Translations under genes and position numbers: made by a program
Shown: positions 24,584 to 34,392 of the stretch, in pieces
Position numbering within the stretch: position 1 is the stretch's first letter
Layout of the letters: each line of letters opens with the position of its first letter
Notes under the pieces: generated by a model
What the model saw: only the letters and a program-made list of their open reading frames with translations
Told to the model about the DNA's origin: nothing
The model's database searches: none
NCBI GenBank assembly: GCA_018304465.1
Contig: JAGVWC010000011.1
Location: forward strand, 64,001-128,000
Source of the DNA: Candidatus Iainarchaeum sp.
GTDB lineage: Archaea > Iainarchaeota > Iainarchaeia > Iainarchaeales > JAGVWC01
Direction: 5' to 3'
Length of the DNA: 64,000 bases

Positions 24584-24641
24584 GCCAAAAGTTATATTTT
24601 TCTTGTTCGTTTTTATTTCAGCGGATAAAGATATCTTCCCA
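24584..24641 (-). repeat. scpA 3'-end repeat copy (WEDIFIR*NKNEQEK)
   Basis: gccaaaagttatatttttcttgttcgtttttatttcagcggataaagatatcttccca aligns to the scpA end at about 33576-33633. Confidence 0.85.
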
Positions 24642-24674
24642 CAACGTTGCGTTTATTACAAAAAAAGAATTTTT

Positions 24675-25079
24675 TCAATCTGATGAAACAATTTCAAAGG
24701 CCAATAAATACTCGTCGTTTATTTTAAGCGCATATTTTCCATTGGCACCCGCTAAACCAACCGTACGGGTATAATATTCAGTCCATCCATCAAAACGCGA
24801 ATCCAACTTCTGCCATCCAAGCTGGTTTAGATCTTGGCTCAAGAGAGTATTTGGGTATTCAACAAACTCGAATTGATTCAGAGTGATTTGGGTTTTTGTC
24901 AGAACATGCAATTCATCGAACGATTCAAAACTTGAACACCGGAAATTAAAATCGGGTGGAAGACTAGCTACATTGCATTGTAATACCGGCTTATTTGCCC
25001 AAAATGGCTTCTCTCCCACACACCCCATCAACAGGAGCCCCCCTACCAGGAGGATACAAACCAAAGAAAGATGTTTCAT
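24675..25079 (-). CDS. Hypothetical lipoprotein (cassette gene)
   Basis: LLLMGC lipobox; flanked by scpA-end repeats. Confidence 0.7.
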   Translation of the reverse strand: MKHLSLVCILLVGGLLLMGCVGEKPFWANKPVLQCNVASLPPDFNFRCSSFESFDELHVLTKTQITLNQFEFVEYPNTLLSQDLNQLGWQKLDSRFDGWTEYYTRTVGLAGANGKYALKINDEYLLAFEIVSSD

Positions 25080-25130
25080 GTTTCAAATACAATTAGAAAG
25101 AATAAAAATGTTCCTACAACGCATTTGTTT

Positions 25131-25146
25131 TGGCAAGAACAATTTC
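25131..25146 (+). repeat. Inverted copy of the scpA WQEQF half-site
   Basis: tggcaagaacaatttc is the exact reverse complement of 32930-32945. Confidence 0.6.
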
Positions 25147-25192
25147 CTTTTTCACGAATTCCACAAAATAAGTTTAATTGCTGTTCTCTTGC

Positions 25193-25226
25193 GTTTTGTT
25201 CGAGCGGATGAAAATATCTTCCCAAA
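25193..25226 (-). repeat. scpA 3'-end repeat copy (WEDIFIRSNK)
   Basis: gttttgttcgagcggatgaaaatatcttcccaaa. Confidence 0.75.
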
Positions 25227-25268
25227 TTAACGAGTCTATTTTTAAAAGAAATTTTGTTTGGATCGGTT

Positions 25269-26420
25269 TCAATTCGGAAGCGACAAATCCCATTCTATTT
25301 TTTGATTCCCCGTAAAATCATCCGTATCGGGATGCGCGGCCCAAGAGTCATTCAATGATCCGTTCAATCTCCCGGATTCGGTCCAGGTTCCCTCGATGAA
25401 CGCCAGAGTTATTCCCAGTGGTTCGTCGTACGATTGGGCGGTTTCTTCGCAGCCTTCTTCGTTGGTCTGGGTCACGGTAACGTGCACCATGACCGCTTTG
25501 TCCACGATGGGTCCCGAATAAGTTCCGTCCGCATAGACGCCGACATATCCATCCTCATATCGATCCAATACTTCGCTTCCACTGCCTGTTCGAACCGTCG
25601 TAGCGCAGTCGTCCCGGGTCGTTTCCTGAAACTCCCAGGTCAATAATCCGTCAGACCAATAATACGTCAAGGCCTCCGGATTCCGATACCCGAAAACAGC
25701 ATGTTCTTTCAAAGTCCCGCCCAGTATGGATACTCGAAGGAAATGGTTATACGAATAATTTCTCGTCGCCCATTCACGGGTGACCCAACTACACTGCAAC
25801 GGCGCCGAAGCCGCCCGGTTCATGATCTGGGTATTCAACGCGTCCAAATCCGCGGTACTTGTCAATTCGGCTAATTCGATCAAACGCCCCTTGCACAGGG
25901 TCGAATTCGTTAACACGCCTTCGATATACGCTTTGATCTTATTCTTCACCGCATCCATCAATTCCGGGTCCTTGATGCCAAGCGATTCGGCCCACGAAAA
26001 CGCATCCAACCATGCGCGCGGAGTGGATGCGGGATCCGATAACACGAACCGAACCCATTCCTTGATTCGGGCCACTACTTCAGCCGGCAATTCATCCTCC
26101 GAGACACCCGCTTCAATCAGGATCCGCATGGCCGCGGACTGCTGTGCGATCGTCGAAGAACTGCTTTTCATCACGTCTTTGGCGTCTTCGATCTTGGGAT
26201 CGTTGTCCGCGTCCGGATCCGGTCCCGGATTGTTTCCCAACGGACCCGAATCGTCATTCGAATCCGATGCGGGATTATTCGAACCGCTTGGCGGAAAAGT
26301 CGCCGCATTTGGACCCGTCGAAGACGGAACCTGGGCACAACCGACAAGCCACACGAGCAAAAGCACGGCCAACGGCCACACGATCAATCGAAGACGCCTA
26401 TTCACGGGAAAACCAATCAC
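25269..26420 (-). CDS. Hypothetical lipoprotein (cassette gene)
   Basis: LLLVWLVGC lipobox, then a P/S/N/D-rich linker. Confidence 0.7.
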   Translation of the reverse strand: MIGFPVNRRLRLIVWPLAVLLLVWLVGCAQVPSSTGPNAATFPPSGSNNPASDSNDDSGPLGNNPGPDPDADNDPKIEDAKDVMKSSSSTIAQQSAAMRILIEAGVSEDELPAEVVARIKEWVRFVLSDPASTPRAWLDAFSWAESLGIKDPELMDAVKNKIKAYIEGVLTNSTLCKGRLIELAELTSTADLDALNTQIMNRAASAPLQCSWVTREWATRNYSYNHFLRVSILGGTLKEHAVFGYRNPEALTYYWSDGLLTWEFQETTRDDCATTVRTGSGSEVLDRYEDGYVGVYADGTYSGPIVDKAVMVHVTVTQTNEEGCEETAQSYDEPLGITLAFIEGTWTESGRLNGSLNDSWAAHPDTDDFTGNQKIEWDLSLPN

Positions 26421-26472
26421 GCTATCAGAATGAATTTTCCTACTATTTATGGATTGCGTTATGAATCGCTCA

Positions 26473-32358: not shown

Positions 32359-32443
32359 AAAAAAATAATTAGAATGGCCGAATTTGGTGCCGTAATTTGA
32401 ATAGTTTTTTATACAAGTCGCCGCACTATTAAATAGTGACATA

Positions 32444-32653
32444 ATGGTTAGTAATGAGCAGATTTTGCAGGGAAAAGCAATCAAAGAATTGGCTGAGGAA
32501 GCCGCCCGCGTAAAAGAAGGCTTGAAAGGATACTTAGAAGACTTGGAATTATACTCGAATCCTGAATTTTGGGAAGCAATCGCCGAAACCAACGAAAACA
32601 AAGGCAAAAAATTCGCTTCAACCAAAAAACTCTTCCAAGAGCTCGATAGCTGA
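32444..32653 (+). CDS. Putative antitoxin
   Basis: 69 aa, acidic, PEFWEAIAE..E.KGKKF; TGATG overlap with the toxin. Confidence 0.7.
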   Translation: MVSNEQILQGKAIKELAEEAARVKEGLKGYLEDLELYSNPEFWEAIAETNENKGKKFASTKKLFQELDS

Positions 32654-32901
32654 TGCCCTACTCTGTTTTTCGATCCGACAGGTTCAAAAAAGAATACAAA
32701 AAACTCGACGGTCGCCAACAACAATTAGTGAAAAAGAAAATCGACAAAATCGTCGAAAACCCCGAAGTCGGAAAACCCTTGCACGCGCCGTTGCAAAACT
32801 TCAAAAGCGAACGAATCGAAAACCTGCGAATCGTCTACACGATTGAAGGAACATTGATCAAATTCGCTTGGATCGAAGACCGCGGACACGCATACGATTA
32901 A
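32653..32901 (+). CDS. relE: RelE/ParE-family toxin
   Basis: FKKEYKKLD, NPEVGKPL, RIVYTI, RGHAY. Confidence 0.85.
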   Translation: MPYSVFRSDRFKKEYKKLDGRQQQLVKKKIDKIVENPEVGKPLHAPLQNFKSERIENLRIVYTIEGTLIKFAWIEDRGHAYD

Positions 32902-32912
32902 AATTGTGTATT

Positions 32913-32946
32913 AAACGCCTTTATCGTTAGAAATTGTTCTTGCCAC
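32913..32946 (-). repeat. scpA WQEQF half-site plus arm
   Basis: aattgttcttgcca is identical to scpA 33635-33648. Confidence 0.7.
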
Positions 32947-32955
32947 TTTGTGAAC

Positions 32956-33573
32956 TTACAAGTTTGGATTATTTCTCGCATCATAAAAAAACATGCTTGT
33001 CATCACCACGGAGTGAAAAATGTCATGCCTAATTTGAAACTCCAACAGTTCTTCAAAAGTTGGATTATTTTTTTGATCCCACCGGTCTTCGTTTGAAGGG
33101 TCAAAAAATAAGCCCATTTTACTGATGACGCCTTTGATTCTTGCATCTTCTACATTGCTGATTTTTTGGGCAAGCTCTCGGATTTGCCAATGAACGGGTT
33201 GGTCCATCGAAAAATCTCTCGGATTTCGGGAGAACCAGTCTATCATTCGATTAAATGCGTCGGAAGCTTCAGGGGTGACTTTGGATCTCACTTGCTCTTT
33301 AAGCGATCCGGCAATGATTGGAATAATTTGTTCAATCGCTCTTGCGGTTCCCGTTTGTGTTCTTTCAGATCCGACGCCATGCGATAACACAATTCGAAGC
33401 GACCTGGCTACAATGGATTTTTCCATCGGATTTTTAACCATCGTGGCCAACGGTTTCCACCCCTTCTTGCGAGCAGCCAGATACGCCTTTTGATGAGCAA
33501 CATACTGTGGAGTTTTTCGTTGCGGCAAGTTCAACACCACTAAAAAAGCATTCAAACCAATTAAAATAATCAT
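32956..33573 (-). CDS. Hypothetical protein (cassette ORFan); likely start is TTG at 33528 (MPQRKTP)
   Basis: Open frame directly downstream of scpA; GGTG before the TTG. Confidence 0.6.
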   Translation of the reverse strand: MIILIGLNAFLVVLNLPQRKTPQYVAHQKAYLAARKKGWKPLATMVKNPMEKSIVARSLRIVLSHGVGSERTQTGTARAIEQIIPIIAGSLKEQVRSKVTPEASDAFNRMIDWFSRNPRDFSMDQPVHWQIRELAQKISNVEDARIKGVISKMGLFFDPSNEDRWDQKNNPTFEELLEFQIRHDIFHSVVMTSMFFYDARNNPNL

Positions 33574-33585
33574 CAGCCAAACGTC

Positions 33586-34392
33586 TTATTTTTCCTGTTG
33601 ATTTTTATTCCAGCGAATAAAGATATCTTCCCAGAATTGTTCTTGCCAAATCATGATTTGGTTTCGATTGGCCAAAAACAACAATGGAATAAAATTGTTC
33701 ACGACTTCGATGGGGTCGTTTTTGTGTTCGGCGGTTAACTGCGAAAACAACACGAGTCCCTGCGAATCCGCGCGCGCTTTGATCTTGTTCAACACATCCG
33801 CCATTTTTTCTTCAATGTTAAAACTCGGGTCCGGCATCACGAAGCGCAGTTCCTCGAGTTTTTTGGCAAACCGCGACTGCGTCGAGGATTTGGCCAGCAT
33901 GGTTTCAATGGTTTGCACCAGTGAATCAAGCGTAACGGGTCCTTCGCGCATCATGCGGGTTCCGCGTAACTCCGGGATCTGGGCGGCAAGCAACGCGCGT
34001 TCTTCCGGCGACAATTCTTTTTCCTTTAATTCGTCTTCCAGTTCTTCAAGACTTGTCAAACGCAGGGTTTTCGCTTTGTGTTTAAGCAAAATCGCGGTCG
34101 CCAAAATCGCGTTGGCGGGCACGCGCAGATTCGACCGTTCCAACAAATTTATTTTGGACAAATACAAATCCGCCAAGCGAATCACGTCAATGTTCCACGG
34201 ATCCATTTTTTCGGCTTTCACGATATCAAGCAAAATCGTTTTCCAAGCCGGCTGGTCAATCAAGTCCACCAAATATTCATGCGTCACTTCTTCGGGCAAC
34301 GCGTATTCGATCAACTGTTCCGAATCCGCCTCTTCTTTTTGATGCGATTCCACGGTGCTTTCGGTTACATCCGGTTTTTTTTTGGGAGACAT
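33586..34392 (-). CDS. scpA: Segregation and condensation protein A (SMC kleisin)
   Basis: MDPWNIDVIRLADLYL, A.AILLK.KA, F.PLLFL, QEQFWEDIFI. Confidence 0.9.
   Translation of the reverse strand: MSPKKKPDVTESTVESHQKEEADSEQLIEYALPEEVTHEYLVDLIDQPAWKTILLDIVKAEKMDPWNIDVIRLADLYLSKINLLERSNLRVPANAILATAILLKHKAKTLRLTSLEELEDELKEKELSPEERALLAAQIPELRGTRMMREGPVTLDSLVQTIETMLAKSSTQSRFAKKLEELRFVMPDPSFNIEEKMADVLNKIKARADSQGLVLFSQLTAEHKNDPIEVVNNFIPLLFLANRNQIMIWQEQFWEDIFIRWNKNQQEK

Follow-up and report, generated by a model that had tools for sequence, protein, structure and literature searches.

Cis-mobilizable elements (CIMEs), integrative and mobilizable elements (IMEs) and satellite-like non-autonomous elements are formed by site-specific accretion; bounded by attachment (att) sites and lacking an integrase, they lie in tandem with an autonomous element or replace it. 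Modules that depend on Xer, such as integrative mobile elements exploiting Xer (IMEX) and plasmid dif (pdif) modules, are free of recombinases, often carry toxin-antitoxin (TA) genes and are bounded by copies of a host recombination site. The archaeal dif site is 28 bp long with an 11-6-11 inverted repeat (PMC2958812). Islands can restore the target gene that they split, the displaced fragment then marking the island's end (PMC4383910), protein-coding genes harbor some of the attB sites in archaea, where integration in tandem also occurs (PMC8371274), and chromosomal integrons contain TA cassettes (PMC13108822). The archaeal recombinase review (PMC8371274) makes no mention of scpA, and in the literature that we searched neither integration at scpA in archaea nor arrays of the kind described below in Iainarchaeota were reported. 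Here we analyze a 64,000-nt stretch of DNA (the window) from Candidatus Iainarchaeum sp., comprising positions 64,001 to 128,000 of contig JAGVWC010000011.1 (C7:64001-128000) in a metagenome-assembled genome of 1.25 Mb and 15 contigs (GCA_018304465.1), in which copies of the 3′ end of the gene scpA punctuate arrays of small accessory genes. We conclude that the scpA 3′ end is probably the attB site of a family of tyrosine-integrase elements in this DPANN order, and that the arrays probably reflect repeated integration followed by the persistence of remnants or mini-elements.

Copies of the scpA tail downstream of the gene

The target gene, scpA, occupies positions 33586-34392 of the window on the minus strand and encodes a 268-aa protein matching the Pfam family SMC_ScpA (E 3.9e-16), with orthologues in 29 of 31 relatives. 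It is intact: the 268-aa frame is open, the Pfam match reaches the end of the model, and the C-terminus aligns with those of the orthologues. Its functional tail (33574-33650, minus strand) is an attL-like site and serves as the reference for the repeat family. It comprises a left arm beginning at the W-Q-E-Q-F codons, a right arm running from the W-E-D-I-F codons to the stop, and approximately 14 nt past the stop. This unit, corresponding to the last ~21 codons plus the ~14-nt extension, recurs six times downstream of the gene within the range 24582-33650, at 32273-32330, 31004-31064, 30528-30604, 26470-26514, 25189-25228 and 24582-24648, with every copy on the minus strand, as scpA is, and located between plausible genes. 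An earlier note on this DNA had listed six extra same-strand, intergenic copies, and all of them are present, five identified by DNA searches and one by reading the encoded peptide.

Five of the six copies were recovered by a repeat search, by nhmmer and by a sequence-only covariance model (nhmmer E 1e-7 to 1e-18 in 1.25 Mb), and a 31-nt degenerate core with up to three mismatches allowed gave seven matches in the window compared with none in 100 shuffles. The remaining copy, at 26470-26514, is the most diverged and was missed by the DNA searches; its six-frame translation yields a conservatively changed tail peptide followed by stops. Decay of the tails roughly increases with distance from scpA. 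The copy at 30528-30604 is complete and 89% identical to that of scpA, the one at 31004-31064 retains the 3′ half with the stop and spacer, the one at 25189-25228 has a left flank of its own, and the copy furthest from the gene (24582-24648) has acquired an in-frame stop and lost its own stop codon. Nearly all copies are preceded by nearby stop codons and so cannot be translated now. A 168-aa frame with a TTG start that overlaps the 32273 tail, antisense to a ParE toxin gene pair, is probably spurious.

Repeats of this kind in a 15-contig assembly that has repeat families at its contig ends could in principle reflect an assembly or binning artefact. However, Logan contigs of an independent run (X5) cover 23682-26896, 29531-30780 and 30753-32693 with zero differences, and a separate 1.8-kb metagenome contig joins scpA, the next open reading frame (ORF) and the ParE gene. 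Because the copies are bridged by independent contigs, the arrangement cannot be attributed to assembly, and the chimera that the earlier note had named as its own refutation was not borne out; with the same architecture present in many other genomes, we consider the probability of an artefact to be close to nil.

The stretch is contained wholly or partly in 11 runs from 8 studies, with 3 of the runs being possible sources of it, and junctions were examined as contigs of 4 of these runs. Contigs of X5 are joined at tails from 30587 to 33586 and from 30812 back to 30530, both out of register with simple excision. A further joint, from 30587 to 32394, has just 20 letters on one side, and loose contig ends were found at 24546, 24650, 25095, 29051, 31125 and 34410; this joint and the loose ends may represent strain variants near cassette borders, or other organisms. 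Within the functional scpA tail itself, an A-to-C variant at 33616 that changes Ile to Met in a conserved motif was seen on separate contigs of runs X5, X6 and X8, each time 31 nt from the contig end, and may come from a co-existing strain or from an additional tail copy.

Coding-type divergence and anatomy of the sites

Aligning 11 codons across 12 copies, we counted 6, 7 and 32 differences from the consensus at codon positions 1, 2 and 3, respectively. The same alignment contains 24 synonymous and 14 non-synonymous changes, counts that, with the copies being interrelated, are given without a formal test. Divergence biased toward third positions argues that the tails diverged while serving as coding ends of scpA, not as duplicates in decay, and the simplest reading is that each copy would once have been the working end of a scpA gene. 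The pattern also bears on another possibility, that a promoter, terminator, RNA motif or other functional cis element was copied beside many genes. This would fit the consistently intergenic position of the copies and an A/T-rich stretch approximately 30 nt ahead of the start codon in the gene following scpA. The variation, however, follows codon positions instead of a DNA or RNA motif, no significant fold was found, the copies lie at varying distances and orientations relative to neighboring genes, and in relatives they track each genome's own ScpA ending, making a cis element extremely unlikely.

We also rejected an attC-like or other fold: seven sites folded as DNA had z-scores from +0.5 to -1.9, and between 10 and 133 of 200 shuffles folded equally well. 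The dyad that the earlier note had placed in the core (AAGATATCTT) does occur in the E-D-I-F codons, but it is broken by third-position changes in 7 of the 12 copies and is therefore not a conserved feature.

Comparison of the sites revealed three types. Type A comprises the left arm and the right arm up to a sharp boundary ~14 nt past the stop; four are well preserved (that of scpA itself and those starting at 30528, 55454 and C15:14873), and a decayed copy at C15:104690 resembles a fifth. In type B, with five members, the same right arm is joined to a conserved arm of 60-110 nt (the X arm), which was never seen without an attached tail. The idea that the X arm is a diverged piece of scpA was discarded, as global alignments gave z-scores of -0.9 to 1.0 relative to shuffles; among the X arms themselves, 6 of the 10 pairs aligned at z 5.6-8.5 and the other 4 at -0.5 to 2.9. 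Type C, the left arm alone, is represented by two half sites, one of them inverted. A 16-mer from the left arm, searched with at most two mismatches, has seven matches genome-wide, six of which are at tail loci.

The part of the array closest to scpA shows how these types fit together. A type-C half site, identified by its 16-mer match, lies at 32931-32946 (minus strand), and a type-B site, composed of an X arm at 32331-32441 and the displaced tail at 32273-32330, lies further downstream on the same strand. Exactly between the two is a plus-strand pair at 32444-32901, consisting of an antitoxin gene (32444-32653) and a ParE/RelE-like toxin gene (32653-32901; ParE-like_toxin 2.2e-6, ParE_toxin 3e-5), the pattern expected from a cassette that integrated into an already displaced tail. 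The inverted type-C half site (25130-25145) is 45 nt from the tail copy at 25189, an arrangement that hints at either an inversion or another type of junction.

Displaced tails and integrases in related genomes

At the DNA level, exact degenerate patterns of the tail had no matches in genome contigs or in viral contigs and one in metagenome contigs, with the same sequence as the window; a DNA model of the tail (R1) revealed no strong family outside the host genome (best foreign E 1.7e-5 among 150 genomes), and BLASTN with the tail DNA of G003 found no further copy in G001-G003. Lacking a strong foreign match at this level, we searched relatives at the peptide level, with a profile built from 18 residues at the ScpA C-terminus and a set of 151 genomes from the order, including the host genome; the full ScpA protein as a query misses short tail fragments. 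The profile matched 136 of the 151 genomes, usually once and within a frame of 220-320 aa that represents the real ScpA. At least two matches were found in 29 genomes, the host among them, with the extra matches in short frames, and in all 13 genomes inspected these were tail fragments outside the full ScpA frame.

In five genomes (G073, G056, G103, G095 and G028) the fragment is on the scpA contig, on the same strand and 0.7-10.7 kb downstream of the gene, while arrays of two or three tails occur in G067, G059, G047 and record L080. In another genus, a fragment on G001:C24 starts at the exact codon of the type-A left boundary, directly after the stop of a ferredoxin gene. Separately, a ScpA-tail fragment follows the stop of a CDC48-type AAA ATPase gene in two genera of one family (G001:C59 and G002:C31); this fragment is either a secondary site or a tail that was displaced long ago and is shared by both.

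The most direct evidence for the kind of element involved comes from three relatives (G028, G057 and G015) that have a tyrosine integrase gene directly after scpA. In G028, a 478-aa integrase (PF00589, E 1e-12) with a C-terminal zinc ribbon starts 37 nt past scpA and is followed by ~10 kb of other genes, a PIN toxin, a displaced tail and, further on, scpB, delimiting an element of 10.7 kb. G057 has the same layout in an element of 12.6 kb that also ends in a displaced tail. The integrases of the two are 68-70% identical, and the elements share only this gene, their cargo being different. These are ordinary integrative elements with the scpA tail as attB and a replacement tail of their own. In G015, an integrase starts 99 nt past scpA on C5, where the contig then ends, and on C10 an arm-plus-tail site is found immediately upstream of a 71%-identical integrase.

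In four other genomes (G056, G103, G095 and G073), scpA and the displaced tail are separated by 0.7-2.7 kb of DNA that has no integrase gene and encodes ParE, VapBC, PIN or Fic proteins, and the array of G067 contains an MNT/HEPN pair plus a PIN protein. Two sequence boxes, an 11-nt one at the junction itself and another ~45-50 nt away from it, are common to the cassette-side arms in relatives and to the full-element arms. In G103, both junctions have an identical 17-nt core before diverging into two different ScpA-like endings. The view of the earlier note that the scpA 3′ end acts as an attB-like site, with each event leaving a displaced tail behind, holds in the host and in related genomes alike.

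On this basis, the replacement scpA tail that an element brings would lie just upstream of the integrase gene, together with a distal arm and a short common core. Integration would restore scpA with the element's tail and push the previous tail to the element's far border, and repeated integration would stack the displaced tails into an array. The units now present could have been left after internal deletion, with addictive TA genes and cargo surviving, or they could be non-autonomous mini-elements with both att sites, movable by an incoming integrase. The repeats, their coding-type divergence, their spread through the order and the integrase-bearing elements at scpA in relatives were observed directly, whereas the crossover point, the order of these events and any mobility in the host genome today are inferred.

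Tail copies elsewhere in the genome and a second gene tail

Iterated nhmmer, the covariance model and a six-frame peptide scan together identified 15 tail sites genome-wide including that of scpA, all intergenic and on a single strand of each contig. The earlier note had described the copies as lying downstream of scpA, which is correct for those that it listed, but the family is not confined there: 8 of the 14 extra copies are in two more arrays and two single sites. The second array (53452-55530, minus strand) is also in the window and has three tail sites. It consists of a type-A tail (55454-55530), an M29 peptidase-like gene on the plus strand (54257-55438), a type-B site (54095-54195), an antitoxin and ParE toxin pair (53524-54030) and a truncated type-B site (53452-53578). 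A third array lies at C15:12742-14950, and the single copies are at C7:9985-10041 and C15:104690-104754, the latter directly after a tRNA-splicing endonuclease gene.

Near the single copy on C7, hisG (Pfam HisG plus HisG_C) has a second copy of its 3′ end 1.3 kb further on (C7 9702-9947 and 11263-11373). The repeat spans 96 nt at 98% identity and ends exactly at the stop codon, the second copy has an internal deletion between two 15-nt microhomologies, and the insert that the copies flank contains the scpA-tail copy, a ParE/DUF2683 pair and a Cys-rich lipoprotein gene. The duplication of the hisG tail around an insert indicates that a second gene tail was used as an insertion site. In a self-BLAST of the genome (225 pairs), hisG is the only case besides the scpA tails that fits gene-tail duplication. 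A general habit of this kind was discarded, as the other short local repeats are tRNA genes, internal protein repeats and paralogues.

The hisG duplication is among the observations that would favor an origin without any site-specific enzyme, in which circles form by homologous recombination between tails and re-enter at any tail by a single crossover (Campbell-type), the diverged tails being contributed by related strains. The scpA tails are indeed direct repeats of 65-90% identity that could recombine. Against this, identity in that range across 60-75 nt makes a poor substrate, the repeat boundaries are sharp and common to the copies, with the same left boundary in another genus (G001:C24), and in the hybrid sites the switch from the tail to a conserved non-scpA arm always falls at the same point. 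We therefore regard homologous recombination as very unlikely to explain the arrays.

Two further features of the genome sequence were noted. A 45-nt direct repeat on C13 (180103-180147 and 180716-180760, 91% identity) surrounds a single 178-aa ORF on the minus strand and may be another small insertion, unrelated to scpA. The contig ends of C1, C2, C4, C5, C7 (3′ end), C9, C10, C12, C13 and C14 contain a few repeat families (65-90% identity, 0.2-1.6 kb) that probably broke the assembly.

Recombinases of the host genome

As the earlier note had observed, there is no recognizable integrase in the window, with neither PF00589 nor PF00239 giving a match there, and no PF00589 match was found in or beside any array of the host genome; tyrosine recombinases do exist elsewhere in it. 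One of them, intC7, is a 452-aa tyrosine integrase (C7 680-2300, minus strand) directly downstream of a tRNA gene that apparently has an intron, so that the start of the contig holds a classical tRNA-targeting element. A second, intC15, is of a type that also occurs as a frameshifted or stop-containing copy at C13 ~90283-90815, with two TGA codons within the match. The third is XerA; with TBP and EndA, which are likewise encoded, it identifies the genome as archaeal, and the DPANN affiliation assumed in the earlier note is correct. The XerA-like recombinase on C6 (~162357-164093, minus strand) is a 710-aa frame whose catalytic domain is split by a LAGLIDADG-type intein-like insert, with PF00589 positions 2-135 and 135-171 separated by 1.2 kb. 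The archaeal dif/XerA pair was excluded as the source of the sites here on account of the missing conserved dyad. Among nine integrases 35-42% identical to the scpA-linked one, none had the tail motif nearby, and the element proteins of G028 and G057 had no match in the host-genome arrays.

Genes between the tails

The units between tails are 0.4-5.3 kb long and contain one to three intact genes with little spare DNA. Immediately after scpA, starting 12 nt past its stop, is a 205-aa ORF (32956-33573, minus strand) that matches no family and shows no similarity to integrases. Beyond the ParE pair and the type-B site are a 356-aa basic ORF without a family (31155-32225, minus) and, past the partial tail, a 124-aa basic ORFan (30636-31010, minus) with a paralogue in the C15 array (68% aa identity). 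Both paralogues directly follow a tail. Among 5.8 billion proteins at near lengths, the only matches to this ORFan were itself and the paralogue, and scores in the ESM Atlas were at noise level (at most 0.80). The type-A tail at 30528 is followed by genes with family matches, encoding a DUF4382 protein (29102-30451, minus) and a 763-aa GHL15-like protein (26626-28917, minus), and the two most distant units each hold a putative lipoprotein gene on the minus strand, one of 383 aa without a family (25269-26420) and one of 134 aa (24675-25079). Consistent with the earlier note, the inserts are small and recombinase-free, and TA genes are over-represented among them.

Remnants of elements or mobile cassettes

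Repeated integration by tyrosine-integrase elements at scpA remains the probable origin of the arrays, although a number of observations weigh against it. Complete type-A copies follow unrelated genes, and of the 14 extra copies eight do not adjoin scpA, neither of which is predicted by simple integration at attB. The cassettes are compact, with intact ORFs and no visible decay, and one ORFan cassette is present in two arrays. No cognate integrase was found in the host genome, where the best match to the scpA-linked integrase has an E of 1e-11: candidate intC15 is 23% identical to it and 8.7 kb from the nearest tail, and candidate intC7 adjoins the intron-bearing tRNA gene. None of eight cassette proteins contains an integrase remnant (all E > 0.08). 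The earlier note had proposed looking for a recombinase that accompanies the arrays; a tyrosine integrase follows scpA in the three relatives, but none is beside the arrays of the host. The host X arm has the same layout as the arms of other families without likeness in sequence, which is why the link to a scpA-specific integrase clade is one of architecture. Finally, among 35 named scpA loci with 6-kb flanks, downstream tails were found in 2 and a scpA-linked integrase in none.

These points leave some room for a dedicated integron-like platform, in which the small cassettes instead of larger elements are the primary mobile units, the tail is the recombination site and an unlinked host or helper recombinase inserts and shuffles them at scpA and other tails. 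In its favor are the gene-sized units, the occurrence of the same ORFan cassette directly after a tail in two arrays, the ParE cassette inside a split tail, the conservation of arm boxes in cassettes without an integrase, and the excess of integrase-less units (~20) over full elements (3) in the genomes inspected. On the other hand, no integrase adjoins any array, the tails have no attC-like hairpin, the cassette genes have no common orientation, relatives contain parent elements that use this site and have an integrase, and no in-register circular or empty-site junction was found in the contigs of the four runs. For these reasons the new integron-like system that the earlier note proposed is not upheld, and we consider a dedicated platform unlikely.

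A related idea, that the integrase-less units are moved in trans, is somewhat less doubtful but still less likely than not. One may tentatively go further and picture a working cassette system, in which gene-sized modules, each with an arm and a spare scpA tail, would be excised and reinserted in trans by helper integrases at scpA or at any displaced tail; the modules of such a system would, as an equally tentative suggestion, be largely TA genes and genes for surface proteins. If this were true, reduced DPANN genomes would have an integron-like, shuffleable store of accessory genes on the end of a chromosome-segregation gene.

With integration by the element family as the preferred explanation, the locus is of use in several ways. 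A conserved integration site in scpA, which can be recognized in roughly one in five of the 151 genomes sampled from one order, offers a precise means to find and delimit the little-charted mobile DNA of very small DPANN genomes, ties a clade of tyrosine integrases to a defined protein-gene target, and shows how accessory and TA genes accumulate in such genomes. The att-bounded one-gene units without an integrase offer a test of whether site-specific elements stay mobile after shrinking to cassette size. Moreover, each integration gives ScpA a new C-terminal ending of 12-20 residues, a change that could matter for the SMC-kleisin interaction.

Comparison with known systems

The closest counterparts are tyrosine-integrase islands and proviruses at the 3′ ends of tRNA, tmRNA or protein-coding genes, where, as here, the gene is restored and a displaced fragment is found at the far border. 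The direct repeat of the target's 3′ end typical of such elements is present in the window and in G028, G057, G073, G056, G103 and G095; the integrase adjoining the regenerated target, which they also have, was found in relatives G028, G057 and G015 only and not in the host genome. Unlike known islands of this class, the host locus has scpA as its target, up to six stacked displaced tails and no unit with an integrase.

The likeness to CIMEs and IMEs lies in units that are bounded by the att sites of an integrase-bearing family and are themselves integrase-less. It holds for relatives, where the arm boxes are common to cassettes and full elements, and may extend to the host, whose X arm has the layout of those arms but not their sequence. 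In contrast to CIMEs and IMEs, the units here are much smaller (down to 0.4-0.7 kb for a single ORF or TA pair) and have no transfer functions. With Xer-dependent modules they have in common the recombinase-free units, often with TA genes, between copies of a host site, but the sites here are direct repeats without a conserved dyad.

Chromosomal integrons are similar in having arrays of small, mostly single-gene cassettes, a repeated recombination site and TA cassettes. They differ in that no IntI is present here, the nearest PF00589 match being more than 8 kb from any tail, and that the repeat is a gene tail instead of an attC hairpin. The orientation of the cassettes is mixed, with the ParE pair at 32444-32901 and the peptidase at 54257-55438 opposite to the others, and parent elements with their own integrase exist. 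The mechanism, site-specific integration with accretion at the 3′ end of a gene, belongs to a type already known; the setting is new, and the form that it takes here is unusually reduced and cassette-like.

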